Origin: a virus
Lineage: Duplodnaviria; Caudoviricetes
IMG/VR virus record: IMGVR_UViG_3300005805_000086
Coordinates: 1,547 to 65,546 of that record
Length of the DNA stretch: 64,000 nucleotides
Reading direction: 5' to 3' (one strand)
Below, in pieces: positions 1 to 30,431 of the stretch. The notes below the pieces were generated by a model. The model was not told the origin of the DNA, ran no database searches, and worked only from the letters and a program-made list of their open reading frames with translations. A program made the translations under genes and the position numbers. Numbering within the stretch: the stretch's first letter is position 1; every line of letters begins with the position of its first letter.

Positions 1-3000
1 GCAATTGATTTTTTACAATCAGCAAGCATCTCCATAAGTTCAAATGGGGTTCCAACTATTACCTTTTCTCCGCACCCACTGTTTGTTAACTATTCTGAAA
101 GTGACCGCAATTGGGGAAGTGTTGAAGCACCATCGGTAGATGAAATACGTGATGTTGTCTCGTATTTATTGCCATATATTTATGACAGTGCGGGCACGAC
201 TTCTGATCCTTTTGCGGATATATTAGAGATTCGTGAAAATAGAGAAGAACTATGGGCTGAAAATCTTTGGGATATTCTTTATGGTGAAAACCGCATTGGT
301 CCATCATTTGAAGTTTCTGAAGCAGCTAGGAAAGATGCAGAAAAAGGAAATAGTCCACTAGGAGAACTGTTAAGGGCACTTAAGATATCACGAAAAATAA
401 ATGAACCACGTACGGTTATTGATATTATGCTTGAATCCGTATTTAACCCAATTGAACTTGGTGTACATGATGCTACTGAACACCTTTCAACCGGACGCGG
501 ATTCGATAGGCATGGAGAATGGGCTGCATTACTGATAGCTTCCGCAGAAGATGCTGTCAGCGCTGATGATTGGGTGGAAACTGATGATCAACTCAGATCG
601 CTTTTAACTAACTTATTTTCCACTTTTGGCGGAATGCAAATTCTACTGCAACAGATAGAAACAGCAATTCAGAAAGAAAAAGCTAACGGCATTAATGATT
701 CTGACCGAAAGTCCTCAATTCAATTATCAGATCTCAAAGCTCTTGTCGTAGAAATTCTAAGTAGAAGTAACGAGTCAAAAATAGCAAAGGCGCTCAAGGA
801 TCGTGGACTTTTTTCCCCAATCGAGTTGTTTGATTTGCGCGACGAAGATGGACGACCAATTAATGGCAGCAAGTCTACGACTAGAGAAAACTTTAGAATA
901 AATGATGCTTCAAATAGACTTCTAAATGCCACTGCGGATGAATCAGGTGCAAGTCCGGTACATGGATCTAAGTCACGCACGGATAGGTATCGACTCGTAG
1001 GTCGAGAAGCAGAAGAAATATATGATGATCTCGAACTTACTACTGAGGAAAAAGTAGCTATTCGGCGAGCCCTGTCTGATGACCTATCCCACATACAAGC
1101 GTTGTACGATATGGTAAAAAGTGGACAGATACCAGAGTATGTACACCCAGGACTAACACGGAAACAAGTAATTGATATCCTCGAATCAATTGAACTATCC
1201 GTCTCATCTAATGGCGTTCCAGTCATAACTTTTATGGGGATGCCATACTTGCAAGATCTTCTTCCAAAAGATAGAAATTGGTCTACGGTAGAGGCGCCAT
1301 CTGTTGCAGAACTAGACAAAATCGGTGAACGGCTCGAAAATAATTTTGGCTCGAATTGGTCTGAAGAAGAAGAAGAGGCGCAGCTATTGGCTCTTCAAAT
1401 CTCAAGAATGATTATTGGGGGTGAAGATACTGGTAGCAAGCTAATACAAGAGAGATTATCTAATTTTATTGATAGTTTGAGATCGGCAACCCCTGATGCG
1501 GATATACGAAAGTTCTGGTTGGAGTTACTTAATGATTTGCCAGTTAATAATTTATCTGATGAAGAAAATCGTAAATTTATTGAGAAATTATTTGGTTTAA
1601 GTGCTGAAGGGCAGGGCCGACCACGATCATTTCCCGAAGTCATTATAAGAGAAATATTTGGGGTTTTATCTACGTCGCAGAGTCATGATCATGGAGAGCA
1701 CGCAGTAACTGGTCGTGGTTTTGACCGTCACGGGGAATGGGCCACATTTCTTTTTGCACTTAGTGTAGCGGATGGCCAGGTGCGGGATGTCGCTGCAGAA
1801 TTGGGTATTGAAGATGAAAGGGTAATCGACTTTGCTCGAAAAAATATTATTGCACATCTTCTTAATATTGGTTCAGAACAAATATTCTACTTTCAACAAC
1901 AAACTCACAGAGAGGGCCTACGACCACTCTTTAATAGACTCTACCCAGATCGCCAGATTCTTCCTGCAGCTATCGACATTGAAAAAATTATTACTGAAGG
2001 AATTGTCGATAATCTTATTCCTGAACGTACGCTTGCGACAAATGAAGTAAATATCAAACGGGCAGTCGGTCTTTTAATGAATGCAATTTATGCCAATAAG
2101 GTCGTAGACTATATGCCACCTGAAATGATGACCGACCTACTACGGGAAATGCTTGGTGATAGAGAGTTTATAGATAATATTTTGCCCCTATTGGCAAAAG
2201 AGCAAACAGGACTTATATCACCCCTGGAAATACAAGATGTTTTTAGTGGAATAAACTCAATAGTTACGAGAATAACGCGCTCTATAGTTAAGGACAAGAA
2301 GCCGGATGTTCTAAAAAACAAAGAAACGGCCATATTGTTTGAGGGAATAGGAACTGAAACATCGCAATATAATATTGATGGTAGGAGTATTGCAGATTCT
2401 AGGTTGAGTGCTGATGAGATAATTCAGCTACTTGATCCACGTAATGAAAATGGGGTTCCATTAAACGGTAGCAAATCATCCACAAAGATTAGTAAGCCAA
2501 TAAACGAAATGAATTTGGATGATATCAATGCAGTAGTAGAAGAAACACAACTGCATCACCTTCCAGATGCCGATGGGATAGACCCAAATAGAAAGAAAAT
2601 TGGGAGGAAGCTCATTGGTCTCATTGATGCTGATATCGCATCTTCAGGTGATCCAACCGAAGCACTCATCGAGAGAATGATAAATGAGCTTGGCTTAGAT
2701 CCACAAAATGTACAAATAGCCAGAGACCAACTTGATAGTGCGATTAATGCGATTACGCAAATTCTAAACAATGAATCAGGGCTCAAATTTCATGTAAGCA
2801 TGCCAGAAGAAACGGTACGCATGATATTGCAGTCATTCTCGGTTGGTGTAGCATCAGACGGATTGCCATATATAGTATTTGCCCCCGACCCACGCGTATC
2901 TAGTGTTATACCCGATGAACGAAATTGGCGCAATGTCGAAATACCATCCATTGATCGAATGATGGAATTTTTTGAGTTCATAAAGAGTGGGCGCGAGTCG

Positions 3001-6000
3001 GCTCCTGAAGAAGTTCAAAGAATCATAGAGAGCTTCATGGGTGGCATGCCCACCCAGGAAGAGGCAGATGGACTATGGGATCTAAGAAAAGCAACATTCG
3101 ATCTAAAAGAAGAGATATTAGCCACGTTAGATAGATTGTATAAATCTGCAAACATGTACGATGGAGACTATACCGAACAGTCAAAAGAAGATATAAAGAA
3201 ATTTAAAGAATTTGCAGAAAGAACTGGCATTCTTGGTTCACAACAATTAAACGGCTCTATCGTATATACGGTTCTGAAGTCTCTATTCTTGCCGTATACT
3301 GGCATCTTTCGCACGGGAAATCCGCACGATCCAGTCGAGCATATGGGTATTGGTCGCGGATTCGATAGGCATGGAGAATGGGCTGCATTTTTGGTTCAAT
3401 TGTCATTATGGAAGTCCTCTGAATCTTTCAATAACATGACTCCCGAACAAAGACAACATGCACTTCATCAAATATTCATAGACGGCAATATAATGCGCTT
3501 AATAAATGCGCAGATAAATTCAGCGACTTCCCAAACCAGTGATTCTGATCCAAATAGGAAAAAATTACTGAGCGAAATGAGAGATTTCCTATGGGAAATA
3601 TTTGATAATCGCAGCGATGCGACCGGTTATCTTGGAGTCGACTGGGATAAGGCAATTGAGATACTTGATCCACGGGACAGTAACGGTGAGCCAATTAATG
3701 GAAGCAAATCTAGTACGAGAAGCTTTTCACCACTTACCGAAGCCTCTGGAGCAACAAGAACACTGATTGCTGCCCAGGAAATGAATCATCGCAGTAGCCA
3801 AGATATGCTCAGGCCACGATTCGGACAATTGGATTCAGGTGATCTACGCAAGATTAATGGTCCATTCAAGCGCAATCCTTTCAAATATCAACTAAATAAT
3901 ATTGCTGAGAGAATGCGCAGTAATGAATCCGTAATCTCCGGATCAAAAAGTACAACTGGCTCACTTGTTCCAAACATACGCATGCGCGCCATATCGGATA
4001 TTCGAAAAGGGCGTGGCGATCTTGTTATTGAGAGATTTAATGATTTGCTACGGGCTCGACGCAATGTTGAGGATCAGATTAAATTCCTAGAGCAGTTCCT
4101 TGATGATGAAGATAATGAATTATGGGAAAGGTACGAAAATAGACATTCCCAACTTGAGGCAATTCTTGATGGAATAAACGCAGAGCTTAAAGAAATAATT
4201 GGCTCACTAGAATTTATGTCATCTGAACATAAAGCAGCAGATATATCGCGCAATGCGTCACAAAAAGCAAAGCAACTTCTGACTGAGCAGATGGGCAGAA
4301 TTAAGTCGGAATTTGATCTTACTCAAGATGATATTGATGAAATTAATAAATTATTAGATATTGACAATCGAGCAATGCGTGATTTATTGAATACGGCTCC
4401 AAGCACACAATCAATGGTGGAAATAATTAATAGCATCAATGCTGCTATTGATGAAATCGGAGCACGCGACATAGATAAACCAAAAGACAATTTTTATGAT
4501 CAATATGATGATGAGGATCGTAAACTTGTTAATGCCTCGGCTGCAGAAATGCTTAGTCATGCAATATCTATAGTTTCACGCAAAAAAGGCATTGACTCTA
4601 TTGGTAGGGCGGTTATAGAAGTTCAGTCAAGAGAGCTGAATGATGATGCTTCAATCACATCTACAACCCCAGGAAGCAAGTCATCAACCGCATCACGTGA
4701 ACAAATAGAGTCTTATCTAACTAATGAGTTAAGCCAAGATGATACCATTATTTCTCTTTCGGAAAAATTTAATACGCCGCCAGCAATTATAAACAGCATT
4801 ACTTTAAGAATGGGTGGACTTCAGGCATTAAGGCGTAATCGTGGGATTGCTATAGGTAATAGCGGTCAACAGAAACTCGCTGGAACTGTTGAACTGGAGA
4901 GATATCTCCTCGATGGCTTACAGTCATCGGATACCGCAACATCGCTAGCTAAAAGATTTGGCATACCGTTAAATCGTGCACAGTCAATAATTACACGCAT
5001 GGGTGGTATTGGGAAATTACGCAAGGAGCGTGGACTCGTGCGTACCACGAAGTTGGATGATCCGCCGATGCAAAGATTGGAAGAACATGCCCTGAATTCT
5101 ATTCGCGATACCGACACGATTAATTCACTAGCTAAGGAATTTGGCATAAGTCCTGGCCGTGTTGGGTATAGAATTAATTTACTTGGCGGATTGCGAAAGT
5201 TGAAACTAAAGAATAGACAACAGAATTCTGAGGTATCTTCGGTAGATGGTAGCAAATCCAGCACCAACGTGGCGCAAAAATATTTTGACTGGATCAACAG
5301 AGGAATGAACTCTCGAGAAATGGATGATATGAAATTCAGTTTGTTGATGGACAAAGAAGATATACATCGAGCGGCAATGGATTATGCGCGTAAGGAGGTT
5401 GAGCGTCTGCAGCTGTCACTCTCCGCAGAGGAAATTGAAAAAGAAACCGGAATACCCCTATTCGTTATCGCTTTAGTGACAGCCCAAATGAGTGATGATG
5501 ATATCAATGATGATACACTTCTCATGCTCAGTGATGATGATGATGATGATGATGAGTATGATGATAACGACGGGCCCGAGCGTAGTTTATTCGATAGTGT
5601 ATATGACAATAGATTTAGATTACTACGCGATCTTATAAAAACCCCGCGATTTATTCTTAAGTTCTTTATTGATAATAATGGGGAGGAGTCACTTCACAAA
5701 CTTGGGGAAAAGATTGTTCAGGCTATGGGCGTAGATAAAACAACCGCCCTAAGGATCATGGCCTCATATAATGGTTTCCGAAAAGGTTTTAATATCCGAG
5801 AATATGCAGACATTTTTGATTTAGATCTAGAAATTGCAGTTTATTCAAGGTATATGGGGCAACTACCGTTAGAGGAAATTCCCATCCTAGCTCGTGAACT
5901 AGGTATGACTGTTGCTCAATTTCTTGATTCCCCGTTGGGTAATGCCAATAGTAGTTTCAGAGTCTACAAAACCCTTAATACCACTAGTCTTGGAGGAAAT

Positions 6001-9000
6001 TTTAGAGGACGAGAAAGTTTTAGAAAAAGCTTTACCCCTGTTATTAGAGAAAGCCTTATCGAACTCATAAGGAGGACGGTGGCGCGGATGCGTGAAGATG
6101 AGTCCAGTTATGGGGCTGATGAACTCGAACAGTACGCTAATTCACTTGAGAACCTGGATACAGAAAACACACTTGACCCATCGTCAGCGACAGACGATGA
6201 GTTTCTTGCTTATGTCAATAGGGGACCATTGACGGACAGTGTGGTTGTTGGGGGTGATGAAGAAGTACGGGAGGCTGTATGGGACATGATACTATCGAAT
6301 GACAGTATCGAAACAATTGCCAACCGTTTTCGCACAACAGAAGATGATGTGCGAATGGCGATGATTGGCTTCTCGCGTCTCCCAGAGGATGAGGCTACCG
6401 CTGGGATGTACATATATCGCGCCTTCGTTCCCGAAAATCCGGGACTACCAGTGAGCAATACTGCCAGATTTGTTCAATACTTACCAAATATCGAAGTCGT
6501 TGCGAAGCTCCTGGGCGTTCCAGAACAACGTATTGTTTATTTATTTAGGGAGTACGCAAAACAAAATGATTTCACTACAGAAATGCTTTTTGAAACACTT
6601 TATGAGCATAGGACCGGACTGTCATCCATGGCAAAAATTCTCAACATTACCATCCCCGAATTGATCAATAAACATATAGAGATTCAAGAAGAAGAATATA
6701 AACAATTTTTATTGCGGGGATTCAGTAAAGATCCTGTCGAATATTCATATTCAATACGCCTCGGTGGGCATCTCAATGATTTGACAGAAAAAGATAGGTT
6801 TTCCATTGAGGACGTCGCGAAAATGATGGATATGAGCGTTCCGGAAGTCAGTGCACTGATAGATAAGTTTAAAGAAGTCTCGACAAAGAATAGAAAACTA
6901 CTTTCCCGCGTTTATAGCGATAATGATATTGATAATGATATTGATGACCCAGGTTCTGGTAGCAAATCCAGTACCAACTCGCCCAAATTAGTAGGCGTGG
7001 CAAAAACACCAAAAGAAATACTTGATGAAATAGACAAATATCTATCAAATAGCCTTGAGGAGAATGACACGGTAGGATCAATAGCTGAGAAGTTCGGACT
7101 GAGCTTTTTTGTCATAAATGAAAGAGTAAAAAAACTCGGTGGCATGAACAGATTGCGTTCAGAACGCGGATTTGCAAAAGACGCAAAATATTTAAGAAAT
7201 GCGTCCATAATCGATGATCTTCGTGAGCGTGGTGTCGACTTTCTGGAAGAAGGGGAAGCCGAAGAGCGGATGCGAAATGACTGGAATAAAAAAATTAAAG
7301 AAATAGCTCCGATGTTTTCGCAAGCAGCAAGGGATGTCGTATCTAGTGGTAGAAAAACATTAAAAGATGCTGGATATGCGTTCATTATGGGCCAGTTGGC
7401 ACAAATCGACCAAGATGGACGACCAATAGCAAAGATAAGGTGGAGCGACGTTGGTAATGATATTCATATACTTGCCGCCCGAACAAGACTCATAGAATCA
7501 AACGAACTTGAAGCACTTGAAAAACTAGATTCCATAATAGAAAGACTTGCTAACTCATCATCCGATGAGGAATCTGAAGACATAATGCGTGAAATATTTG
7601 GTGATATAGGTGAATCATTTGATCCAAGAGCACAACATTGGACAAATACAATCTCCGCTCGTGGGATAATATCTCAAGGAAGAATGCTCACACCACATCA
7701 CGGAGTTAATGGATTCGCCGGAACCGACAGCGCGCTACGCGCTAGGCAAGAAGCCCTTTATGGATTTCCGGTTCCTGAAGGTGGGAATGACCCATTCCTT
7801 GACCAGCGAACAATTAGTAGCGAAATGATTCCTTCATCCATAAATGATGATCACGTAAGACGACTGCGTGAAATATATGGAGAAGATATAGACATTATTG
7901 ATGGCTATGCTCTTGGAGATGATTCAAGGTATTCCAAGCTCCACAGATCGCCGTATGGCGCAACCAACTTCCAAACAGGAGACCGTAGGAGTGGCCTCCC
8001 AGCAAGAATAATACTGCGTCCAGAAACGGGCGATAGGAGTAGGTTCCACAGCGGAGATGGTCAGGCCGATACAAAGGAATCATTTACTGCTGCATCATTG
8101 AGCGACCCGGAGGTTGCCGCCTACATAATTGGCGGCCAGACGATCAATAGGCCATCAATACAAAATATTCTCCTAAGGGCATCCGGATCACGTAAGGCAT
8201 TTGTTGAATATAGGGCAAATAACGAAAATGATGGTGGCAAGTATCACGAAGCTATAGTTGCTGGCGGCATTGAGTTACAGGATATCGAGGCAATCATTAT
8301 GGGAATGGATGATGTCGCCAAAAAAGAAGGAAATGATGTTCTCGGTCTAAATGTAGATGATTCAACGTCCGTTTCATATGATCTTGGTGGACTGATCGGA
8401 CTAGTTCGAATGGGTGACGATGCCATGGATCAGCATGGCATTAAGATTGTCCCCGATGTTCTTGGTGGGCTTGGCAGTCAGGTTGAACTACATAATCCAG
8501 CAATGACACGCACATTTGTTGAGAGCGTTGCTGGTAGCGAATTTGAAGGGGTAGATACATCCTTTATCGAGGATGGTCAAACAACTCCATATATTGCGAT
8601 TCTTCAGGAGGCCTTACAGCGTTTAAAGGCAGGGGAAGATCCACGCATTACTAACATAAGTCCATCCCAGCTGAAAAAACCAGGTGCCAGGGAAAGCGCA
8701 ATAGATGGAATCCAAAATGAACTAGATAGGGTTATGGCCCGTAGGGTAAATACTACTGGAAGTAAGTCAACGACACGTTCCAATAGCGAACTGCCCGCCG
8801 TGCGAGCTGATAGGCGTGGAAAAGTTACTGGACCAAATACAATTGCTCTTCGTGAATATATTGAATCATCACTAGCAGAGGACGACACCATACGTTCTCT
8901 TGCTCGCAAATTTAATATTTCTGAATCAACTGTTGGTATTGAGGTTCAAAAACTCGGCGGTTTTAGTAAAATTAGGGCTGATCGTGGTTGGGATAACAGG

Positions 9001-9372
9001 AGTAGACGTGGTGTTCCGTCTGGTTCTGGAACAATTGCTTTACGCAATTACTTGAGTGGCACCATATCTGGAGATGACACCATCAGTTCACTAGCTGAAA
9101 AATTTGGAGTCTCGACATCGGTTGTTGGCGTTGAATTGCGCAAGCTTGGTGGGTTGAGGAAATTGCGTTCAAATAGCGAAACCACTCCACGTCAACGAAA
9201 CAGTCGAGAAATATCAAACAATGAAAGATCACTTATTTCCCATGTTTCGTCAAATCTAAGACCTGGAGATACGATTGAATCTTTGGGTAATGAGTTTGAT
9301 CTTCCATATGGCATAGTTCAGTCAATAGTTAATACACTTGGTGGAATGAAAAGACTAAAAGCCCAAAAATAA
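1..9372 (+). CDS. Giant polyvalent / putative virion polyprotein (5'-partial, >=3123 aa): 3 HDxxEH-GRGFDRHGEWA modules, coiled coil, multiple HTH repeats, ART-like domain
   Basis: Frame 1 is open from base 1 (AIDFLQSASISISSNGVPTITF...), so the track start at 169 (TTG) is internal. The upstream residues are homologous to two later repeats (SVSSNGVPVITF..RNWSTVEAPS; GVASDGLPYIVF..RNWRNVEIPS). Stop TAA at 9370-9372. Confidence 0.9.
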   Translation, partial: AIDFLQSASISISSNGVPTITFSPHPLFVNYSESDRNWGSVEAPSVDEIRDVVSYLLPYIYDSAGTTSDPFADILEIRENREELWAENLWDILYGENRIGPSFEVSEAARKDAEKGNSPLGELLRALKISRKINEPRTVIDIMLESVFNPIELGVHDATEHLSTGRGFDRHGEWAALLIASAEDAVSADDWVETDDQLRSLLTNLFSTFGGMQILLQQIETAIQKEKANGINDSDRKSSIQLSDLKALVVEILSRSNESKIAKALKDRGLFSPIELFDLRDEDGRPINGSKSTTRENFRINDASNRLLNATADESGASPVHGSKSRTDRYRLVGREAEEIYDDLELTTEEKVAIRRALSDDLSHIQALYDMVKSGQIPEYVHPGLTRKQVIDILESIELSVSSNGVPVITFMGMPYLQDLLPKDRNWSTVEAPSVAELDKIGERLENNFGSNWSEEEEEAQLLALQISRMIIGGEDTGSKLIQERLSNFIDSLRSATPDADIRKFWLELLNDLPVNNLSDEENRKFIEKLFGLSAEGQGRPRSFPEVIIREIFGVLSTSQSHDHGEHAVTGRGFDRHGEWATFLFALSVADGQVRDVAAELGIEDERVIDFARKNIIAHLLNIGSEQIFYFQQQTHREGLRPLFNRLYPDRQILPAAIDIEKIITEGIVDNLIPERTLATNEVNIKRAVGLLMNAIYANKVVDYMPPEMMTDLLREMLGDREFIDNILPLLAKEQTGLISPLEIQDVFSGINSIVTRITRSIVKDKKPDVLKNKETAILFEGIGTETSQYNIDGRSIADSRLSADEIIQLLDPRNENGVPLNGSKSSTKISKPINEMNLDDINAVVEETQLHHLPDADGIDPNRKKIGRKLIGLIDADIASSGDPTEALIERMINELGLDPQNVQIARDQLDSAINAITQILNNESGLKFHVSMPEETVRMILQSFSVGVASDGLPYIVFAPDPRVSSVIPDERNWRNVEIPSIDRMMEFFEFIKSGRESAPEEVQRIIESFMGGMPTQEEADGLWDLRKATFDLKEEILATLDRLYKSANMYDGDYTEQSKEDIKKFKEFAERTGILGSQQLNGSIVYTVLKSLFLPYTGIFRTGNPHDPVEHMGIGRGFDRHGEWAAFLVQLSLWKSSESFNNMTPEQRQHALHQIFIDGNIMRLINAQINSATSQTSDSDPNRKKLLSEMRDFLWEIFDNRSDATGYLGVDWDKAIEILDPRDSNGEPINGSKSSTRSFSPLTEASGATRTLIAAQEMNHRSSQDMLRPRFGQLDSGDLRKINGPFKRNPFKYQLNNIAERMRSNESVISGSKSTTGSLVPNIRMRAISDIRKGRGDLVIERFNDLLRARRNVEDQIKFLEQFLDDEDNELWERYENRHSQLEAILDGINAELKEIIGSLEFMSSEHKAADISRNASQKAKQLLTEQMGRIKSEFDLTQDDIDEINKLLDIDNRAMRDLLNTAPSTQSMVEIINSINAAIDEIGARDIDKPKDNFYDQYDDEDRKLVNASAAEMLSHAISIVSRKKGIDSIGRAVIEVQSRELNDDASITSTTPGSKSSTASREQIESYLTNELSQDDTIISLSEKFNTPPAIINSITLRMGGLQALRRNRGIAIGNSGQQKLAGTVELERYLLDGLQSSDTATSLAKRFGIPLNRAQSIITRMGGIGKLRKERGLVRTTKLDDPPMQRLEEHALNSIRDTDTINSLAKEFGISPGRVGYRINLLGGLRKLKLKNRQQNSEVSSVDGSKSSTNVAQKYFDWINRGMNSREMDDMKFSLLMDKEDIHRAAMDYARKEVERLQLSLSAEEIEKETGIPLFVIALVTAQMSDDDINDDTLLMLSDDDDDDDEYDDNDGPERSLFDSVYDNRFRLLRDLIKTPRFILKFFIDNNGEESLHKLGEKIVQAMGVDKTTALRIMASYNGFRKGFNIREYADIFDLDLEIAVYSRYMGQLPLEEIPILARELGMTVAQFLDSPLGNANSSFRVYKTLNTTSLGGNFRGRESFRKSFTPVIRESLIELIRRTVARMREDESSYGADELEQYANSLENLDTENTLDPSSATDDEFLAYVNRGPLTDSVVVGGDEEVREAVWDMILSNDSIETIANRFRTTEDDVRMAMIGFSRLPEDEATAGMYIYRAFVPENPGLPVSNTARFVQYLPNIEVVAKLLGVPEQRIVYLFREYAKQNDFTTEMLFETLYEHRTGLSSMAKILNITIPELINKHIEIQEEEYKQFLLRGFSKDPVEYSYSIRLGGHLNDLTEKDRFSIEDVAKMMDMSVPEVSALIDKFKEVSTKNRKLLSRVYSDNDIDNDIDDPGSGSKSSTNSPKLVGVAKTPKEILDEIDKYLSNSLEENDTVGSIAEKFGLSFFVINERVKKLGGMNRLRSERGFAKDAKYLRNASIIDDLRERGVDFLEEGEAEERMRNDWNKKIKEIAPMFSQAARDVVSSGRKTLKDAGYAFIMGQLAQIDQDGRPIAKIRWSDVGNDIHILAARTRLIESNELEALEKLDSIIERLANSSSDEESEDIMREIFGDIGESFDPRAQHWTNTISARGIISQGRMLTPHHGVNGFAGTDSALRARQEALYGFPVPEGGNDPFLDQRTISSEMIPSSINDDHVRRLREIYGEDIDIIDGYALGDDSRYSKLHRSPYGATNFQTGDRRSGLPARIILRPETGDRSRFHSGDGQADTKESFTAASLSDPEVAAYIIGGQTINRPSIQNILLRASGSRKAFVEYRANNENDGGKYHEAIVAGGIELQDIEAIIMGMDDVAKKEGNDVLGLNVDDSTSVSYDLGGLIGLVRMGDDAMDQHGIKIVPDVLGGLGSQVELHNPAMTRTFVESVAGSEFEGVDTSFIEDGQTTPYIAILQEALQRLKAGEDPRITNISPSQLKKPGARESAIDGIQNELDRVMARRVNTTGSKSTTRSNSELPAVRADRRGKVTGPNTIALREYIESSLAEDDTIRSLARKFNISESTVGIEVQKLGGFSKIRADRGWDNRSRRGVPSGSGTIALRNYLSGTISGDDTISSLAEKFGVSTSVVGVELRKLGGLRKLRSNSETTPRQRNSREISNNERSLISHVSSNLRPGDTIESLGNEFDLPYGIVQSIVNTLGGMKRLKAQK
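865..8775 (+). repeat. Nine copies of peptide motif G-S-K-S-[S/T/R]-T in the giant ORF
   Basis: Gly codons start at 865, 964, 2467, 3700, 3940, 4672, 5248, 6958 and 8758, read directly from the sequence. Confidence 0.95.
4699..9369 (+). repeat. Seven copies of a ~48-aa HTH-like repeat (DTIxSLAxKFGxS...LGGxxKLRxxRG)
   Basis: Copies at about 4700, 4890, 5075, 7025, 8845, 9035 and 9230, aligned by eye. Confidence 0.85.
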
Positions 9373-9388
9373 ACTATAGTTAAAATTT

Positions 9389-9730
9389 ATGAAACAAGCG
9401 AAGAAGACAAAACACATAAATCATTTGTGTAATATCGTTTTGCGTGTCAAGGGTTCGGTTAAAAACGAGATAGTTGATGCTGCAAGAAAAAATAATATGC
9501 CACTGTCGCAATACATTTTATATTGCGTCTGGGAACACATGCGTTCAGAACGCGGAATTCCACAGCCTGGGTCGGCACAATTCGCGATTCCGGATGTCAA
9601 GACTGAACTCGAGGCATATCTTCGTGGAGAACAAGTACTGATGCCGTGTGGGCGTCCTGCCTGCGATATTGTCGTCACTGAATTCCAGGGAATGGAATTC
9701 TGCGAAACATGCAATGTGAGGATCAAATGA
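9389..9730 (+). CDS. Ribbon-helix-helix (Arc/CopG-like) regulator with C-terminal Cys4 zinc finger
   Basis: IVLRVKGSVKNEIVDAARKNNMPLSQYI fits the RHH strand-helix-helix pattern; PCGRPAC...CETC at the C-terminus. Confidence 0.6.
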   Translation: MKQAKKTKHINHLCNIVLRVKGSVKNEIVDAARKNNMPLSQYILYCVWEHMRSERGIPQPGSAQFAIPDVKTELEAYLRGEQVLMPCGRPACDIVVTEFQGMEFCETCNVRIK

Positions 9731-10110
9731 GAATTGAGGAAAAAAACGTTTCAGCTGTTGCCAATAAGGCTGATGCTTTATTCTTTTTTGTTGATCAGAA
9801 TGGTTCCGCAACAAAAACAGCTCGTTCATTATTCCCCGACATTTGCCAAGTTGCCGAAATGATGTTTATGACTAAAACATTTCCTTCTGGGGGAATCGCA
9901 TTTACAACAACAGACGGTCAGCACATTATTGTTGGCCAGCGTGGGCCACTGAAGGAGGTAATTGAATCACTCTTAAACATATTAGAAGAACGAAAAATCG
10001 AATCCATAAATATTGCGTCAATCGATGAGTTCAATTACTCACTCGCGCAGGCAGAGGTTAAAATTGATGACAACGGGCCAACAATCACCTTTTGCAATCC
10101 ACTAACATAA
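9727..10110 (+). CDS. Hypothetical protein
   Basis: ATG at 9727 overlaps the upstream TGA (ATGA coupling); 127-aa ORF. Confidence 0.7.
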   Translation: MRIEEKNVSAVANKADALFFFVDQNGSATKTARSLFPDICQVAEMMFMTKTFPSGGIAFTTTDGQHIIVGQRGPLKEVIESLLNILEERKIESINIASIDEFNYSLAQAEVKIDDNGPTITFCNPLT

Positions 10111-10115
10111 AAGCG

Positions 10116-10183
10116 GAGCCCCTAGCCGGAGGGGGATCCGCTAGGGGCTCAACGCAGGAGGATGGTGGGGGTTTTCCTCCTTT
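10116..10183. terminator. Double hairpin between convergent genes (probable intrinsic terminator)
   Basis: GAGCCCCTAGC (10116-10126) / GCTAGGGGCTC (10140-10150) form a perfect 11-bp stem; a second stem GGAGGA/TCCTCC (10157-10180) is followed by TTT. Lies between a + stop at 10110 and a - stop at 10217. Confidence 0.65.
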
Positions 10184-10216
10184 CGACACTTTAGCATTAA
10201 AATTATTATTTGCAAG

Positions 10217-12199
10217 TTATGTGATTGAATCAAGTAGATTAAAAATTATATTTGTCGCGTCTGGAGCATCATCGATATACTCACCATCAACCGCCTTGTC
10301 TACTACTCGACGTTTTCGGTCGATTAGATCATATATTTCCTGATCTATTGTTCCATTCGTCATCATATATGTCGCGGTTACTGAACCCTTTTGGCCAATT
10401 CTGTGACATCTGCTGTATGTTTGATCAACATCGGCTGGAGTCCACGGAAGTTCCACAAATAGAACTTCTTGAGATGCAGTAAGTGTATGTCCCGTCTTTG
10501 CTGCCTGGATAGATAATACAATTACTGGAGCCTCTTCGCATGATGCTGTCTGGAATTTGTATTTCATATCCTCGACAGTCTGGACATCCATCTGGCCCTG
10601 AATCTTTAGCCCACCATACTTATTGGCAAGTTCGTTGACTATTTCCCTGTGATGCGCAGCGACTACAACCTTTCTTCCTTCCGATATGCGTTCCTGAATC
10701 CATTCATGAACCATTTCCATTTTTGCTTTTGCTGCAATTTTTCGCAAAACACTTATTCTGAGGAGGTGATCATGCGCTTCCGCTTTAAGCCGAGCACGAA
10801 CTGCAGCAGCACCTATTGGTAGTCCCATTTCGGTTGCAATACGTGTTGCTTGATCTACTAAATATGAAACAATGTCAGCTTGTGCTTTTGAATATTCTTT
10901 CATAATTGTTGCATTACCATCAACCAATAGCGGATTGTGAACTACCGGGGGAAGGTCTTGCATGACCTGGTCTTTTGTTCTCCTGATATAACAAGTTGAA
11001 CGTAGTTTATCGTTTAGCTCCTCGAGATTTGAGTTCCCTTCAAGATGCCACTGCCCCCACTTATCGCGATATGCGGCACAGTAGCGTCTGTAGAAACCCC
11101 ACAAACCACCAAACTTGTCGAGTCGTCCAAGAATATCTAATTGTGGCGCATATTCGGCTGGTTTATTTGTAACTGGAGTTCCAGTAAGGCATAGTACTAC
11201 AGCATTCGATGGAGCTGATTTTACGATTTTACGTGCGGCACGCGTTCTTTGTGCGTCCATTGACTTGCAATAGTGAGACTCATCAAAAACATAAGCGTTA
11301 TGTTTCATGAGATTCTTTTCCCACGCAGCAAGATTGCTATATCCAATAACTACAACATCGTATGTTCCAAACATTGGTATTTCTTTACGATTCAAACATA
11401 CTTCAACAATTCGTTCAGGCAAGAATCTGTTGTACTCATTCTTCCAGTTAAGCACCAAGTTTGGTGGACATACAACAACAGCTGGGTATGATGGAAAACC
11501 GTCAAACTTTTCATACTCTTGATGTAGGTACTCAAGCGTAGCCATTGCCTGCAATGTTTTCCCAAGGCCCATTTCATCCGCAATAAATGCACGACGTGCA
11601 TTGGCGGCATAAGCAACACCAGCGCGCTGATATGCCAATAACTGACCATTGAGGGTCTCAATATGGATCTCGGCATCCGTGGAACGACTTGCATCACGCA
11701 GGGCTGTCAGGTCAGCAACAATATTATCGGCTACTACCTTCACGTCTTCGGGGATTGGTTGTCTGAAGGTCTGTGCCCATTTAATAACGGACTGAGATGC
11801 AGAAAATGGAGCCTTCCATGCCTTTGTTTTTGGGTCCCATGTAATTCCGTCTATTTGCTTAACTGATCGAACCATTACTGGGTCATATTTAAAGGCGAGA
11901 GTGAAGTATTCGCCATCTATGCCAAGTCCGCCGCCGGGATTTGGGTGAATCGGAAGATCAAAAGCTAAAACTTCATTAGTGATTTCAAAATCGTACTTAA
12001 TAGCGAAGTCACGAGCTACCTTTAGGCTTGAAACTGGTACTTTCCAAATCTTTGATATCTTGTCCCATTTTGCCCCACTTATTGACTTAACTTCACTTAC
12101 CAGTTTTTCATCAAATGGAAAGTCAAGTACAAGGAAGTCCTCGTGCAAATAGAGGGTGGATTTCTGCTGGCCGTTCTGATTTGTCTGGAAATTGCTCAT
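10217..12199 (-). CDS. SNF2-family (SMARCAL1/HARP-like) helicase
   Basis: LLAYQRAGV, IADEMGLGKT (Walker A), VFDESH, LTGTPVTN, ELPWTPADVDQTYSRCHRIGQ; two N-terminal HARP-like repeats (F.YD..V..VK.I.G..WD...K.W..P). Confidence 0.9.
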   Translation of the reverse strand: MSNFQTNQNGQQKSTLYLHEDFLVLDFPFDEKLVSEVKSISGAKWDKISKIWKVPVSSLKVARDFAIKYDFEITNEVLAFDLPIHPNPGGGLGIDGEYFTLAFKYDPVMVRSVKQIDGITWDPKTKAWKAPFSASQSVIKWAQTFRQPIPEDVKVVADNIVADLTALRDASRSTDAEIHIETLNGQLLAYQRAGVAYAANARRAFIADEMGLGKTLQAMATLEYLHQEYEKFDGFPSYPAVVVCPPNLVLNWKNEYNRFLPERIVEVCLNRKEIPMFGTYDVVVIGYSNLAAWEKNLMKHNAYVFDESHYCKSMDAQRTRAARKIVKSAPSNAVVLCLTGTPVTNKPAEYAPQLDILGRLDKFGGLWGFYRRYCAAYRDKWGQWHLEGNSNLEELNDKLRSTCYIRRTKDQVMQDLPPVVHNPLLVDGNATIMKEYSKAQADIVSYLVDQATRIATEMGLPIGAAAVRARLKAEAHDHLLRISVLRKIAAKAKMEMVHEWIQERISEGRKVVVAAHHREIVNELANKYGGLKIQGQMDVQTVEDMKYKFQTASCEEAPVIVLSIQAAKTGHTLTASQEVLFVELPWTPADVDQTYSRCHRIGQKGSVTATYMMTNGTIDQEIYDLIDRKRRVVDKAVDGEYIDDAPDATNIIFNLLDSIT

Positions 12200-12578
12200 C
12201 TATCAACCTGCTGATTCTTGCTTTTCCCCAACCATTTGGTTCTGTCCATATAGCGTACTGTACGCCATTATCAAGGAGGAGTGATTGGCACCTCTTGCAC
12301 GGTCGAGCAAGGCCAATTTTTCCACTTCGTGTCATTCGAGCAACATATATCGTTGCACCCTCGGCATTACCGGCACGTCGTATTGCAACCTCTTCTGCGT
12401 GGTACGAAACACCATCGATGTCAACTTTTGATGGGTTATTTCGATATCGGTTTACCCCAACAGAAAGTACGCGCCCAGACCTGACAAGAACCGCCCCAAC
12501 GCGCCACTGAGTATGTGATGCATTTAGTGATTCATCTACAGCGTATGTCAGCCACTTAAGTTCACTGGCGGAAAGCAT
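12123..12578 (-). CDS. Zn-dependent cytidine/dCMP deaminase-family protein
   Basis: HAEE and ARPCKRC zinc/catalytic motifs; VGAVLV...LSVGVN N-terminal motif. Confidence 0.85.
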   Translation of the reverse strand: MLSASELKWLTYAVDESLNASHTQWRVGAVLVRSGRVLSVGVNRYRNNPSKVDIDGVSYHAEEVAIRRAGNAEGATIYVARMTRSGKIGLARPCKRCQSLLLDNGVQYAIWTEPNGWGKARISRLIDEQFPDKSERPAEIHPLFARGLPCT

Positions 12579-12766
12579 TAACTTCTCTTTCTGGAAATGG
12601 TATTAATTCTTTCAATGACGGCATTCCACTTTGCGGCAGTGAGAACCGCCTGCTCGCGCTCAATGGGAAGATCGGGCAGCTCTTCATACTTGTTTTGTTG
12701 ATTCCCCAAGCCAGTCGAAATGGCTGACAATGGTAAAACTGATGTTAGAAATGCGCGTCGATTCAT
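12578..12766 (-). CDS. Small hypothetical protein with N-terminal RRAFL (twin-arginine-like) motif
   Basis: 62-aa ORF abutting the deaminase start; begins MNRRAFLTS. Confidence 0.5.
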   Translation of the reverse strand: MNRRAFLTSVLPLSAISTGLGNQQNKYEELPDLPIEREQAVLTAAKWNAVIERINTISRKRS

Positions 12767-12817
12767 TTATTGCACACTAGTTCATTATGTGACATGGATC
12801 AAATTGCAATCCGTAAA

Positions 12818-13141
12818 TTACATTGTCTCTCGTATTGCCTTCATAGCCCTTCGACGCTGCTCGCCTTCCAGGGTCATCGCCTTGCGTCTGGCAATATCTC
12901 TTTCAACCTTCTTTATTGTGCGTGCTAGTTGACCAGGTCTGCGGGCACGTGGTGAAACTCCGCCCCAAATTCCATGAATTTCGTGAGTTTCTGCGGCATA
13001 CATAAGGCACTCCAGCCGTACTGGGCACTCTCCGCATATTTGTATTGTCGTTGATATCGTGCTTTCCCCTTGTTCAAGATAGAACAGTTCAGGACTCAAT
13101 CCACGACAAGCAGCATCTTTGAAAAATTCACGAGACGTCAT
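12818..13141 (-). CDS. whiB: WhiB-family Fe-S transcription factor (copy 1)
   Basis: AAC-x23-CGECPVRLEC...HGIWGG; ATG at 13141 is preceded by GGAGGGG. Confidence 0.92.
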   Translation of the reverse strand: MTSREFFKDAACRGLSPELFYLEQGESTISTTIQICGECPVRLECLMYAAETHEIHGIWGGVSPRARRPGQLARTIKKVERDIARRKAMTLEGEQRRRAMKAIRETM

Positions 13142-13230
13142 TTCCCCTCCATTTTTGCTCAATCATTACTTCACTCAATAATTACGTAATTCAGAGGCAT
13201 TTTCAAGTTCTGACTAAGAAATTGAAGAAA

Positions 13231-13404
13231 TTATTTTGAGCTATCTTGTTTCATCATTTTGAAACTTGGTAATTCTTTTCGCAACCTTTCGATCTCGTCG
13301 GCTGCCTCAGCTTCAAGGCATGAACCACATTTGCCGCAGTAGTCTTTGCATTCCCCCCACCATAATATGTCTTCTCGTAGTCGGCTCACAATGTCGTCAC
13401 TCAC
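13231..13404 (-). CDS. Small hypothetical protein (DDIVxRLR...EAADEIERLR family), not in the ORF track
   Basis: Manual translation: MSDDIVSRLREDILWWGECKDYCGKCGSCLEAEAADEIERLRKELPSFKMMKQDSSK (57 aa, GTG start). Confidence 0.7.
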   Translation of the reverse strand: MSDDIVSRLREDILWWGECKDYCGKCGSCLEAEAADEIERLRKELPSFKMMKQDSSK

Positions 13405-13600
13405 CACGCAACTCCGTCCATGCGTCTAGCGCATCATCCCATTGTCCTGTGCGGATGCCGTGAGCAAGAGCATCTCCCGCTTGTCGTAGGCGCTCAATCT
13501 CATCAGCAGCTTCCCAGCAAGCGGATGGAATAATGCGACCACTCATGTCGCCACGTAGACTGGCGATATCACGCAGTCGGGTAATGATGTCGTCAGTCAT
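13397..13600 (-). CDS. Small hypothetical protein (DDIITRLR...EAADEIERLR family)
   Basis: ATG at 13600; shares motifs with the neighbouring small genes. Confidence 0.7.
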   Translation of the reverse strand: MTDDIITRLRDIASLRGDMSGRIIPSACWEAADEIERLRQAGDALAHGIRTGQWDDALDAWTELRGE

Positions 13601-13901
13601 TATCGGCCTCACCATTCTCTGGAATATATTCCATTTCTTTCTTATGCCATTTGCGGACCTCTGCTAAGGCATCATCAATATTTGAGAAATGATGATTACG
13701 ATTTGGGCCAAGGCAATATGAGTAAACAGATATGGTTGGTTCTGTTTTGCCATTACGCATTTCAAAGAATGTTGGGTAGTTTACAGAAACAGCGCCCTCA
13801 TCCGACTTGCAATGTGATTCGTATGAGAAATAGTGCTCATATGCTTCAGCGAGGAGGCTCCATATTTCTTGTAGTTTTGTCTGCAATGTTGTTTCGTTCA
13901 C
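13593..13901 (-). CDS. Hypothetical protein
   Basis: ORF within a tightly packed run; start uncertain (GTG at 13901 chosen). Confidence 0.55.
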   Translation of the reverse strand: MNETTLQTKLQEIWSLLAEAYEHYFSYESHCKSDEGAVSVNYPTFFEMRNGKTEPTISVYSYCLGPNRNHHFSNIDDALAEVRKWHKKEMEYIPENGEADND

Positions 13902-14127
13902 TACGCAATGCCTTTTCATATGCCATAACTGCTCTAAACAAATCAGAACCATCCGAGATGACAAACTGTCCCGATTTATCCGTAGTATATGCTCGACCGA
14001 ATAAATCCGCTACTTTTTTCCATCGTTCACAGTTGGTGCGAAGTTGTTCAATTTCCTTGGCAGCATTGTGACAGAGGCTCCAGTCTGGAAATGCCAGCAG
14101 TTGATTCACGATATCATCTTCCATCAT
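13846..14127 (-). CDS. Small hypothetical protein (DDIV...AAKEIEQLR family)
   Basis: Motif similarity to 13231-13404 and 13397-13600. Confidence 0.6.
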   Translation of the reverse strand: MMEDDIVNQLLAFPDWSLCHNAAKEIEQLRTNCERWKKVADLFGRAYTTDKSGQFVISDGSDLFRAVMAYEKALRSERNNIADKTTRNMEPPR

Positions 14128-14131
14128 GCAC

Positions 14132-14350
14132 CTACCTTCTGGCACGCTCGTAGGAAATAAGAGCAGAATTTCTCTTTATATTAAAATTAACTTCTTGGTC
14201 GAGAGAGTATAACAAATTGGCTAAATTATCAGCAATTTGTCTTTCATCAGAAAGCTGTGCTTCCATCTGCTTGATTCGATTACGGAGATAAATTACCTCA
14301 TCCTCGAGACGAAAATTAAACTCAGCAACTGGATCATATCCCTGCGTCAT
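14132..14350 (-). CDS. Small coiled-coil hypothetical protein
   Basis: GGGAGAA SD upstream; ERQIADNLANLL motif similar to 19070-19324. Confidence 0.7.
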   Translation of the reverse strand: MTQGYDPVAEFNFRLEDEVIYLRNRIKQMEAQLSDERQIADNLANLLYSLDQEVNFNIKRNSALISYERARR

Positions 14351-14368
14351 AGTTTTCTCCCTATTGCG

Positions 14369-14444
14369 TGGCTGGCGAGGTAGGGCTCGAACCTACGACA
14401 AGCGGATTAACAGTCCGCTGCTCTGCCAACTGAGCTACTCGCCA
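14369..14444 (-). tRNA. tRNA-Asn (GTT), CCA encoded
   Basis: Acceptor stem TGGCGAG/CTCGCCA, discriminator G then CCA; anticodon arm GCGGA-CT GTT AA-TCCGC; T-loop GGTTCGAGCC. Confidence 0.97.
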
Positions 14445-14519
14445 ATGTCAATACACCTCAAAGAATATTAATTCCAGCACAATGGGATGTATTGATATTT
14501 ATGATTTATGCAACCCAAT

Positions 14520-16445
14520 TTACTTGATTGGACACGCTCCTGTGGCGCAATCATCCATTGTTAGTTCGCCATCAAATGCTTGTCGATGCAATGGAACAGA
14601 GAAGTCAACCTTTGCCAACATCTTCTCATAGGCATCCTTAGTGATTTCCTCATATGGGGGCAATGGGAAGTTGTGGTCAGTATGAAGAAGGAACGATACA
14701 GACTTAACTGAGTCATCATAGTTCTTAGACAACCACTCTTTGATTTCTGAAAGTTCTTCCTTACGGTAATACACAGTCACCGATACGGCATTATCAGCCC
14801 ACTCGGTCTGCATCTTCTTGACCCACTCCAACTGAGCAACTGCCGTCATATCCTTAGCAAGAACGGAACCCTCGGGTGATTCGCATGGGAACTCAACGAC
14901 GAAACGAGTGTGATCTTCTCGGCCATCAATACCTACGTCATACTGAACCTTGTAGCCACGCTTGCGACACGCATCAACGAGTGGATCAGATGATCCAAAT
15001 CGCACTCGTCGTATGTAGTACTGAGCATAGGCTGGGTGAATGCCAGGTGTAACTCCAGGTAGAAGCGATAGGGTTCCTGATGGCTGTACGGTAGTTAGTC
15101 GGACAGATGTCGGAAGTCCATTCTCTTTTGAGTACTTGGCATCAAGCTCCTCTAGCGCAACATATGCCTCACTGAGCCAGTTAATTTTTTCTTGCTCGCA
15201 CTGAAGAATTCCAGTAATCGACTGACCAAGCCGTGCATTTTTCTGAACGATTTTGGTTGTCTTTTCGTATGGGTAGTTCAGGCGAGTAATTTGCTTCTGT
15301 GTCTTGTATAGCAAATATGAGATGTCTTTGAATTGCTTGAGTGAGTCAATATTTGGCAGAAAGATTGTTGAGAGATTGCATGACTCTCCATCACCAAGCG
15401 CAATTTCTGCACACGGATTGTATCCCTCGATTGTTGGGTCTGACTTGAGTTGACCAACTCGCCCATACTTGCGTGCAAGCTTGCGGTTTACGAGACCATA
15501 TGGCTCACCAGTTCCATCATATCCACGCCAGAGTTCTGGAAGAATCTCATCGTATGAGTCGGCATAGATGCTGTTATTGGAGTTGGCACGCCATGCTGGG
15601 ATGTTTCCAGTTCCCCAATTCTTTGCACGCAAGAAAAGAACATCGTCCGGATCGCCAATTGCAATTTGCGCAGAGCGACGCGATGACCCAGAAACAACAA
15701 TGCGACCGATAATATTGCAGATATCTAGGACATCAATTGAGCGGAGCTTCTTACCAACGCGGTTTTCCATTACCCTGCAGATGTCTGCAATTCCATCAAT
15801 CAATGCACCTGGACCAGATGCCGTTCCACCAAATGTCTTTAGTGGTGCACCATACTCACGAATCAGGATTGTTGAATATGTGAAAGATCGACCAGTTTCG
15901 AAGTATGACTTGAGAACCGAATGTAGGAGTCGACGCCATCCTTGACGGCTGTCAGGAACAATAATGTCGGCATCGTTAGAACGCTCATGAGTAATTGATA
16001 CTCCGCCCTTCACTTTTGGCAGATCGTGAATCTTGGAGCGCTCAACGGAAAAACCAACTCCACCGCCAAGCATTAGGTAATCAAAAAGAAGTTCAAAATC
16101 TTCAATGGATTCAATATTTGTGAAGTAGCAGTTATTGAGACTCGTGCCAGAGAATTTCTGAGTTAGTGGAGTGCCGAGCTGCCACAAGGATCGACCAGAA
16201 AAAGAACAACGCAAATTAAACATGTGATCAAACAGGCGCTCTGCTTCATCCTGGGTATAAGGAACGCCAATATCAATTGCGCCATTGATTACTCGCTGTA
16301 GTGTCTCGACCCACGACTCAGTATCACCGTTTTCCTTCTTGCGACTGTATGTGCGCAGGAAAACTATTTCACCCATTCCATTAAATCCCCAAGGTGGGGT
16401 TTGTGTGGAATATGAACGGACAAATTCGTCTGTGATGCGAGTCAT
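14520..16445 (-). CDS. nrdJ: Class II (adenosylcobalamin-dependent) ribonucleotide reductase, RTPR type
   Basis: FLRTYSR, LNNC, RRSAQI, YNPCAEIAL...CNLS, TTVQPSGTLSLL and C-terminal CATGACPIK redox cysteines. Confidence 0.95.
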   Translation of the reverse strand: MTRITDEFVRSYSTQTPPWGFNGMGEIVFLRTYSRKKENGDTESWVETLQRVINGAIDIGVPYTQDEAERLFDHMFNLRCSFSGRSLWQLGTPLTQKFSGTSLNNCYFTNIESIEDFELLFDYLMLGGGVGFSVERSKIHDLPKVKGGVSITHERSNDADIIVPDSRQGWRRLLHSVLKSYFETGRSFTYSTILIREYGAPLKTFGGTASGPGALIDGIADICRVMENRVGKKLRSIDVLDICNIIGRIVVSGSSRRSAQIAIGDPDDVLFLRAKNWGTGNIPAWRANSNNSIYADSYDEILPELWRGYDGTGEPYGLVNRKLARKYGRVGQLKSDPTIEGYNPCAEIALGDGESCNLSTIFLPNIDSLKQFKDISYLLYKTQKQITRLNYPYEKTTKIVQKNARLGQSITGILQCEQEKINWLSEAYVALEELDAKYSKENGLPTSVRLTTVQPSGTLSLLPGVTPGIHPAYAQYYIRRVRFGSSDPLVDACRKRGYKVQYDVGIDGREDHTRFVVEFPCESPEGSVLAKDMTAVAQLEWVKKMQTEWADNAVSVTVYYRKEELSEIKEWLSKNYDDSVKSVSFLLHTDHNFPLPPYEEITKDAYEKMLAKVDFSVPLHRQAFDGELTMDDCATGACPIK

Positions 16446-27491: not shown

Positions 27492-28541
27492 ATGTCTCAT
27501 GGCCTAGATAAAAACAGAGCAGGGAAAGTCAGAATGGCCTATTCTGATGTAGAAATTCCCTGGCATCGCATGGGAACTCCGGTTAAGGGTCTTGGTACTG
27601 CTTCCGAAATGCTGAGAGCCGCCGATGCAGATTATTCCGTTATTCTTACACAGGTAGCTGCGGTAGATGATAATGGCAATGTCATATTTACACAAAACGA
27701 ACAAGGACTTTCTGTTCCTTTAGTAGTAAATGACAGCAGAGCTACAGTACGATTAAACAGTGACGGCACTCACGATGCATTATCCACCGTTGGCACTCGT
27801 TACGTTGTTCAGCAAAATATTGACTGCCTTAACAGGGCGCTAGACATAGTTGGGGCTAGCTCTGGTGATGCAATCGTTGATACATGTGGAGTAATCGATC
27901 AGGGGCGCGAATTTTTTGCATCCATCGATATGGGCCCACTATCAATTGACCCATCTGGCATCAATGACCAAATACAGAGATATCTATTGGTCAGGAATGG
28001 ACATGATGGAAAGACACCAATTACCTATGCCAATACATCAGTTCGTGCTGTTTGTAAAAATACAGTGAATGCTGGAATGAAGTCGTCATTGCGTGTCTTT
28101 ACAGCAAGACATACAAAAAATCAAGATAATGTTGTCAATGAAGCACGCCAAGTTTTAGAGCTGTCCGCTGAATGGTCTAAAGACTTAGCTCAGACAGCGA
28201 AAAAAATGCTAACAATCCAGATTCCCGCTTCATCAATGAAACTTGATGCGCTAATTAATTCAATCTTCCCACCTAAAACAAACGAAAGCAATCGCCAAAG
28301 AAAGAACAGGGAAGAAATCAACGAGATAGTACGAATGCTTTATATTTCGGACAGAAATGCAGGAGGATTCGGGTTCAATGGTTGGTCGGCATACAACACA
28401 ATAGTTGAATATTTTGACCACTTTCGCGATGCGTCTCCAGACGACCGGGCAGTATCATCGATGGATCCGACATCATGGGTATCGAGAAAAAAGGAAGCTG
28501 CCCAGAATGCAATCCTTTCAATGGCTGGAGGATATTCGTGA
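27492..28541 (+). CDS. DUF932 / TIGR03299-like phage-plasmid protein
   Basis: MSH...PWHRMG, LSTVGTRYVVQQN, YLLVRNGHDG, VRAVCKNT, GWSAYNTIVEYFDH. Confidence 0.85.
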   Translation: MSHGLDKNRAGKVRMAYSDVEIPWHRMGTPVKGLGTASEMLRAADADYSVILTQVAAVDDNGNVIFTQNEQGLSVPLVVNDSRATVRLNSDGTHDALSTVGTRYVVQQNIDCLNRALDIVGASSGDAIVDTCGVIDQGREFFASIDMGPLSIDPSGINDQIQRYLLVRNGHDGKTPITYANTSVRAVCKNTVNAGMKSSLRVFTARHTKNQDNVVNEARQVLELSAEWSKDLAQTAKKMLTIQIPASSMKLDALINSIFPPKTNESNRQRKNREEINEIVRMLYISDRNAGGFGFNGWSAYNTIVEYFDHFRDASPDDRAVSSMDPTSWVSRKKEAAQNAILSMAGGYS

Positions 28542-28584
28542 GACAATTAGTCAGGCTTCATTCTTCGCTAAGGGGTGGTCGGCC

Positions 28585-30430: not shown

Positions 30431-30431
30431 G

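Follow-up and report, generated by a model that had tools for sequence, protein, structure and literature searches.

The 64,000-nucleotide (nt) stretch analyzed here (the window) covers nt 1547-65546 of the 65,546-nt, single-contig virus record IMGVR_UViG_3300005805_000086, and begins inside a giant open reading frame (ORF) whose unrelated modules are joined by a recurrent peptide, G-S-K-S-x-T; we read this ORF as a cargo polyprotein that is probably cut at the junction peptide by a phage-encoded protease. The ORF occupies window positions 1-9372 on the plus strand, is open in frame 1 from the first base, and ends with a stop codon at 9370-9372. It encodes 3123 amino acids in the window and 3638 in the contig (contig coordinates 2-10918), where it is still open at the contig's first base and is 5′-truncated by the contig end; CheckV puts the completeness of the contig at ~44%, and metagenomes searched for exact matches yielded no 5′ extension of it. 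An initial annotation, made from the sequence alone, had proposed that the ORF is a chain of modules cut by a phage protease at nine GSKS[STR]T sites, and all nine were confirmed exactly as noted, at window positions 865, 964, 2467, 3700, 3940, 4672, 5248, 6958, and 8758; two further sites lie upstream of the window, for 11 in the 3638-residue ORF.

Read from the 5′ end, and throughout on the plus strand, GSKSTT at 865-882 ends the second copy of a module which we call HDxxEH after its signature (DEDGRPIN-GSKS at the joint), and the remainder of a 33-residue spacer peptide at 883-963 leads to GSKSRT at 964-981, which opens the third copy (GSKS-RTDRY). This third HDxxEH module (982-2466; HDHGEH followed by GRGFDRHGEWA) is separated by GSKSST at 2467-2484 from the fourth (2485-3699), which has a spacer-like N-terminus, has lost the second site, and is ended by GSKSST at 3700-3717. 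GSKSTT at 3940-3957 precedes a helical segment of 244 residues, a coiled-coil-like cassette at 3958-4671; GSKSST at 4672-4689 precedes the first triplet of helix-turn-helix (HTH)-like repeats at 4690-5247; GSKSST at 5248-5265 precedes an acidic cassette of 570 residues at 5266-6957; GSKSST at 6958-6975 precedes a cassette combining an HTH with a predicted ADP-ribosyltransferase (ART)-like domain (426 residues at 7480-8757, with a SopF/DUF3626- and DarT-like fold); and GSKSTT at 8758-8775 precedes a C-terminal triplet of HTH-like repeats at 8776-9369. Where the initial annotation counted three HDxxEH modules there are four in the ORF, one of them upstream of the window, and all four end in P(I/L)N-GSKS, as it had observed for its three.

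The motif is far more frequent than chance allows and is constrained as a peptide. From its composition the ORF would be expected to contain 0.09 GSKS tetramers and 0.0009 hexamers; shuffling all large ORFs gave 0.5 motif copies on average and never more than 4, compared with the 11 observed; and the remaining five frames of the contig are free of GSKS. Codon usage varies from site to site, the 18-nt sites differing synonymously with GGA, GGC, or GGT for Gly, codons of both the AGY and TCN families for Ser, and AAG or AAA for Lys, so that constraint acts on the peptide rather than on the DNA. The same differences rule out a DNA-level signal such as a recombination or restriction site, and exclude recent copying of the site DNA. 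Five of the sites join unrelated cassettes with unrelated flanks, and self-cleavage by a flanking domain was rejected on this ground. The flexible context first ascribed to the sites is borne out by flanks that are more hydrophilic than random positions (p ~0.014) and by site residues at the ends of both AlphaFold models that are disordered, with a predicted local distance difference test score (pLDDT) <50.

No match was found when 3000 residues of the giant ORF were compared by tblastn with 50,697 cultured-phage records, and a word-indexed protein search returned a single homologue (P0002). That homologue seems to start at M-A-GSRSRT because its contig is truncated; a sister contig (L004) has a leader of ~150 residues and a GTG start behind GGAGG. 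IMG/VR contained 57 loci with the FDRHGE domain, and the closest homologues (L002, L003, and L004) each carry eight GS[KR]SxT sites. When the window ORF and its homologues were cut at the sites and the pieces compared, site-bounded segments matched end to end: i) the coiled-coil-like cassette of 244 residues is 46% identical to a 245-residue segment of L003 lying between the same two boundary sites; ii) the spacers are 33 residues long; and iii) the three HTH-like repeats of the window ORF face five in the equivalent segment of the homologue. The acidic block and the ART cassette are unique to the window phage relative to L002 and L003 (the acidic cassette has no counterpart in either); the homologues likewise have C-terminal cassettes of their own. 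This comparison bears out what the initial annotation had proposed to test, namely that the motif is kept at module boundaries while the modules between the sites are shuffled.

More distant homologues lack GSKS, and their most frequent 4-mer is instead GFAS (8-12 copies), GLAS (10), LSSG (10), GLSS, STRS (9), or SSRS (9), with GMRS (and S[ST]RS) as a further dialect at joints in relatives. Equivalent modules begin according to lineage with GSKS-RTDRY, GLAS-RTDRI, GFAS-RTDAV, or STRS-RTDTY, and tallying residues by position yields G-[SFLM]-[KRAS]-S-x-[ST] as the family consensus. Six fuller relatives' records of 94-132 kb (G001, G002, G003, G006, G007, and G008) tell the same story on the scale of the genome: each has 16-38 copies of its own peptide, spread over four to seven large proteins, compared with shuffled means of 0.25-1.4, and in each one motif is common to several head-module proteins. 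In an unbiased count of 4-mers (non-collagen ORFs of at least 400 residues), no word was more frequent than the lineage motif in four genomes. When copies are tabulated genome by motif, nearly all fall on the diagonal, with 11, 30, 19, 28, 17, 38, and 16 there and 0-5 off it. Since the motif switches in concert across non-homologous proteins of a whole genome, a trans-acting reader of the peptide is needed, and this lineage-wide block change goes beyond anything in the initial annotation. Only one motif-bearing protein is seen in the window contig because the head module is missing from it.

A candidate reader is found repeatedly beside or within the motif-bearing proteins of these relatives. 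Peptidase_S78, the prohead protease family of HK97 type, is present in G001-G004 and has 308 IMG/VR relatives, many of the latter likewise fused to motif-rich chains. In five of the six fuller relatives it is the N-terminal domain of a motif-bearing protein: giants of 2891 residues in G002, 2105 in G003, 3661 in G007 (with 15 GMRS), and 2295 in G008, and in G006 a single ORF of 4433 residues (42570-55868, plus strand, holding locus L092) that starts with S78 and also carries an HDxxEH module along with seven S[ST]RS sites. In the sixth, G001, which uses the GSKS version, S78 lies directly upstream of such a protein: the gene order is portal, Peptidase_S78 (491 residues; 64520-65992), giants of 3707, 3043, and 2861 residues, smaller proteins, and the capsid gene. 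Motif proteins take up the ~40 kb that separates portal and S78 from the capsid gene, and the genome has 30 GS[KR]SxT sites in seven proteins. The HK97-type protease that the initial annotation recommended seeking in the genome is thus present in relatives, fused to or beside motif-bearing giants, but was not found in the window contig at its 44% completeness.

The homologous chains also begin alike. The homologue leader of ~150 residues carries a DGDGDG...TPFxRP element before the first site, and the G001 homologue of the window ORF shares a leader of ~50 residues before its first site with the giant that lies beside S78. A leader of the form FDPNAxDGDGDGxxQEGTPFxRPxxP was seen just before the first motif in G001 (5986-15231 and 53415-64535) and in G003 (28355-37690, 49004-51421, 51753-55694, and 67285-73599). 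Other head proteins have similar leaders ahead of their first site. This DxDxDG-type leader is a candidate capsid-targeting sequence or propeptide. Another candidate signal, an extreme N-terminal ILNG, proved not to be general.

We propose that the giant ORF is one of a set of cargo polyproteins encoded by an uncultured family of ~150-kb phages, probably freshwater actinophages, in which unrelated modules would be translated as one chain joined by G-S-K-S-x-T, the local version of the family consensus. The junction peptide would be recognized by a phage-encoded protease and the chain cut into its modules; the N-terminal leader (DGDGDG..(E/D)(G/S)TPFxRP, ending at the first site) would, by analogy with the homologues, carry the chain into the prohead; and the pieces would then be delivered together with the phage DNA. 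Cleavage at the motif is likely, and the scheme as a whole, from polyprotein to co-delivered modules, we consider the best explanation and rather probable; packaging in the head and injection are suggested by analogy with the homologues. The proposal of the initial annotation that the chain is cut by a phage protease accordingly gains support from the segment comparison and from the S78 linkage in relatives. Among the possible enzymes we favor the S78 prohead protease, which would cut ahead of the conserved Ser (GSK/S, GFA/S, GMR/S, the slash marking the proposed cut), an assignment we make tentatively and hold somewhat short of probable. HK97 is cut at K/S and herpesvirus assemblin cuts at A/S, the two enzymes belonging to the same protease superfamily; the conservation of Ser after Lys, Arg, Ala, or Ser recalls both, and in this the junction peptide resembles sites cut by that superfamily.

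Several observations weigh against this proposal. The N-terminus of the window ORF, with any leader it may have, lies beyond the contig end; the ORF adjoins replication genes (helicase and ribonucleotide reductase), with no head module there; no S78 protease or HK97-fold capsid gene was found in the contig, nor did a portal gene turn up among the scanned contig ORFs; and the link to the head rests on relatives at 25-45% identity. The Lys-Ser context which the initial annotation suggested seeking in the capsid gene does appear in the relatives as a probable hydrophobic-Lys/Ser maturation site at the probable delta/mature junction ([FI]K/SIG in four of six lineages), but this site does not follow the cargo dialect from lineage to lineage. 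Tape-measure-like or tail-lysin-like proteins also carry two or three motifs of their own genome (G001 85042-89676 and G003 89101-93669, both on the plus strand). The motifs in these tail proteins would be left unexplained by an enzyme acting solely inside the prohead, and S78 is accordingly a candidate for the cutting enzyme. Other proteases are moreover available. The sole protease gene found in the contig (29765-30430, minus strand) encodes an HslV/proteasome-like peptidase of 221 residues with an N-terminal Thr, and HExxH zincin-like modules lie inside sister giants.

These last observations lead to the strongest alternative, in which the motif is cut as we propose, but by an embedded HExxH zincin-like metallopeptidase or by the cytoplasmic HslV-like Thr peptidase rather than by a prohead protease; we regard this as unlikely, though it deserves serious consideration. 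HExxH modules occur in many motif-bearing giants of all six fuller relatives, and the G001 homologue of the window ORF has one at residue 2970; the second residue is hydrophobic (F, L, or M) in many dialects, which would suit the P1′ pocket of a metalloprotease with its preference for hydrophobic residues; the HslV-like protein starts MTTVIG, has its nucleophile intact, and is kept at 52% identity in the 132-kb relative G003; the motifs in tape-measure-like proteins and the capsid site that does not co-vary speak against an enzyme confined to the prohead; and autoprocessing by embedded metallopeptidases has been proposed for comparable phage proteins (PMC5512222). On the other hand, the window ORF has neither an HExxH nor a peptidase Pfam match in its 3638 residues, no HslV-like gene turned up in G001, G002, G004, or G005 (all incomplete), and S78 is linked to motif-rich proteins, by fusion or adjacency, more consistently than either candidate. 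The conserved Ser after a small or basic residue also resembles the A/S and K/S cutting of assemblin and HK97.

A second alternative, which strikes us as quite improbable, is that the motif is never cut but serves as a linear motif in exposed linkers, modified on Ser or Ser/Thr (for example O-glycosylated or phosphorylated) or docking to a capsid, scaffold, or DNA partner. It would account for the conserved S-x-[ST] core in hydrophilic linkers, the window does encode a family-2 glycosyltransferase and a 2OG-Fe(II) oxygenase, and lineage-wide switching demands only a trans-acting reader, which need not be a protease. Yet the motif is absent from those exposed virion proteins that were seen (fibers and capsid), the usual targets of glycosylation; it follows propeptide-like leaders and flanks spacers of 29-33 residues; motif-rich chains start with a protease domain; and the Lys or Arg of some dialects is Ala in others, making one shared chemistry at that residue unlikely. 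Finally, a passive relic linker, copied with duplicated or recombined cassettes and without any reader, might be imagined where sites flank duplicated HDxxEH modules with homologous ends, but is effectively excluded by the five joints between unrelated cassettes, by site codons that differ everywhere, and by the diagonal genome-by-motif table, since drift or gene conversion acting on 12-18 nt cannot switch a whole genome in concert across non-homologous proteins.

Proteolysis by a phage or viral protease at short motifs is itself well known, and our proposed cargo polyprotein has affinities with several systems. Prohead proteases of the T4 and SPN3US types cut head and ejection proteins at short motifs (AXE in SPN3US; PMC10052503): T4 IPI-III and Alt carry a capsid-targeting sequence and are cut by gp21 at L/I-x-E, and the phiKZ and SPN3US enzymes gp175 and gp245 act at A/S/G-x-E (PMC10052503, PMC5694885). 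Shared with these systems, to go by the relatives, are a short consensus in several head-module proteins, putative leaders ending at a site, and a protease gene in the head module; ART-like cargo recalls T4 Alt. In those phages, however, single proteins mostly lose an N-terminal propeptide, whereas here unrelated modules in chains of 2000-4400 residues are separated by up to 16 sites; the protease here is of the S78 (HK97) type, in contrast to the S77/T4 type, and in many cases opens the chain; and the motif lacks Glu, changes between lineages, and is also present in tape-measure-like proteins.

The polyvalent proteins of phages (Iyer, Burroughs, Anand, de Souza, and Aravind 2017; PMC5512222) are the closest precedent for the chain itself. 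Release by an embedded peptidase was proposed for them and an analogy with polyproteins drawn, and an HExxH zincin-like metallopeptidase is present in ~36% of them and not obligatory (PMC5512222). The window ORF shows the defining trait, at least two unrelated effector-type domains in one large phage protein (the predicted ART fold, the HTH arrays, and four copies of a new helical domain), and like the polyvalent proteins is a giant chain of unrelated conflict-type domains (ART and DNA-binding repeats here; NUDIX, pentapeptide, and zincin in relatives) predicted to travel with the DNA. It lacks their hallmark zincin, however, and PMC5512222, as far as consulted, defines no recurrent junction peptide, lineage-specific site code, or S78 fusion. 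Removal of a 103-residue scaffold domain from the HK97 capsid protein (PMC10275583) offers another comparison. As in HK97 gp4/gp5 and the herpesvirus assemblin-scaffold (UL26/UL80), a protease of the same superfamily is N-terminal on a scaffold-type chain and would cut before Ser; there, each chain is cut at two sites to free protease and scaffold alone, whereas dozens of sites here lie between enzyme-like cargo, including in genes far from the head module. Swappable effector domains are also shared with the MuF-fused polymorphic toxins of temperate phages that Jamet et al. are said to have described in 2017, in which such domains reportedly ride on a head-packaged carrier, with one toxin per carrier and no repeated junction motif; no MuF domain was detected in the giant ORF.

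Given this overlap with polyvalent proteins and with the processing of cargo by prohead proteases, the idea is not wholly new. The novelty claimed by the initial annotation stands in one respect, because giant phage polyproteins with an S78 fusion or with a junction code specific to the lineage are not described in the literature searched, and falls in another, because peptidase processing of polyvalent proteins was proposed in 2017 (PMC5512222). What the window adds for this phage family is the GSKSxT version, clean positional equivalences across versions, and a SopF/DarT-like cassette. A broader proposition, on which we are evenly divided, is that a widespread family of freshwater phages devotes about a third of its genome to giant polyproteins, from which a head protease would release dozens of injected enzymes and DNA-binding proteins by cutting at a six-residue code; that code and reader co-evolve (GSKSxT, GFAS, GLAS, LSSG, GMRS, and others); and that cassettes are exchanged at the sites, amounting to an RNA-virus-style strategy in tailed double-stranded DNA phages. 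If this were true, tailed phages would express genuine polyproteins by way of a cleavage code that can be read and can evolve; that code would divide thousands of residues of phage protein that lack annotation into functional units from sequence, predict which proteins are packaged and delivered, and explain the swapping of effector cassettes. It would also yield short, specific pairs of protease and site, and it flags new domains such as the HDxxEH...GRGFDRHGEW module and a phage SopF/DarT-like ADP-ribosyltransferase.

The call of an ART-like domain at 7480-8757 is upheld by predicted fold rather than by family score. An AlphaFold2 model of its 426 residues (pLDDT 76.5) matched the Salmonella ADP-ribosyltransferase SopF (7dn9_A) in Foldseek (probability 1.00, E 9.5e-5) as well as DarT, which ADP-ribosylates DNA (probability 0.99); the sole Pfam match, to DUF3626 (the SopF family), scored 11.6 bits with E 0.13, below the gathering cut-off of 27. 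The terminal domain of the G003 relative passes DUF3626 at 30.8 bits and aligns weakly with the window domain. In an alignment of 11 sequences an Arg, a Tyr-Gly, and a Glu (KYHEA) are invariant and are candidates for the catalytic Arg/His, Ser/Tyr, and Glu of the superfamily. A look-up of the domain in a protein atlas was uninformative. In unrelated giant proteins the ART-like module is flanked by other recurrent peptides, and we regard its identification as a SopF/DarT-like ADP-ribosyltransferase-like domain as supported by the model. Other modules of sister giants (G001 28987-37569, minus strand; L027 775-10110, plus strand) include pentapeptide repeats, NUDIX, and DUF3626, and many of these proteins have HExxH zincin-like modules.

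The HDxxEH...GRGFDRHGEWA module has invariant His, Asp, and His and invariant G.FDRHGE residues. Its model (pLDDT 83, predicted template modeling score 0.83) is nearly all-helical; no PDB match was found by sequence or by Foldseek, VIA-align gave only generic helical-bundle matches (Z 5.2 or less), BFVD gave only weak matches to actinophage proteins of unknown function, and no Pfam family was found in any of 20 members. As modeled, it is a new domain with no convincing match to known folds, a missing match being no proof that the fold differs. Its H-D-x-x-E-H spacing differs from the HExxH or HxxEH zinc site of zincins, and a reading of the module as a metalloprotease finds no support in sequence, family, or structure matches. 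After HDxxEH modules comes a spacer of 29-33 residues (D(I/L)xxIVxE...HH) with the junction motif on both sides, kept in the GSKS, GFAS, and GLSS lineages (window 883-963; L010, L012, and L016); if both flanking sites were cut, it would be freed as a small peptide.

The description of two segments as HTH triplets is supported by Pfam HTH matches inside each (HTH_Tnp_ISL3, HTH_41, and HTH_28 in the C-terminal triplet). The repeats at 4690-5247 and 8776-9369 also score against Pfam LysM (whole-protein E 1.7e-9, with no single stretch passing), and DNA and peptidoglycan are alternative candidate ligands. The acidic cassette has one weak match to an HTH or sigma region 3 close to its end.

An actinobacterial host is probable, to judge from the primase, whose best cultured-phage matches are to Arthrobacter, Microbacterium, and Gordonia phages at ~35% identity; the label of actinophage given by the initial annotation is to this extent a probable one. 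The G+C content is 40-45% in most of the contig, which is compatible with the low-GC freshwater Actinobacteria. A gene at 44697-49778 on the minus strand encodes a collagen-like tail fiber of 1693 residues with G-x-x repeats, and has a G+C content of ~55%.

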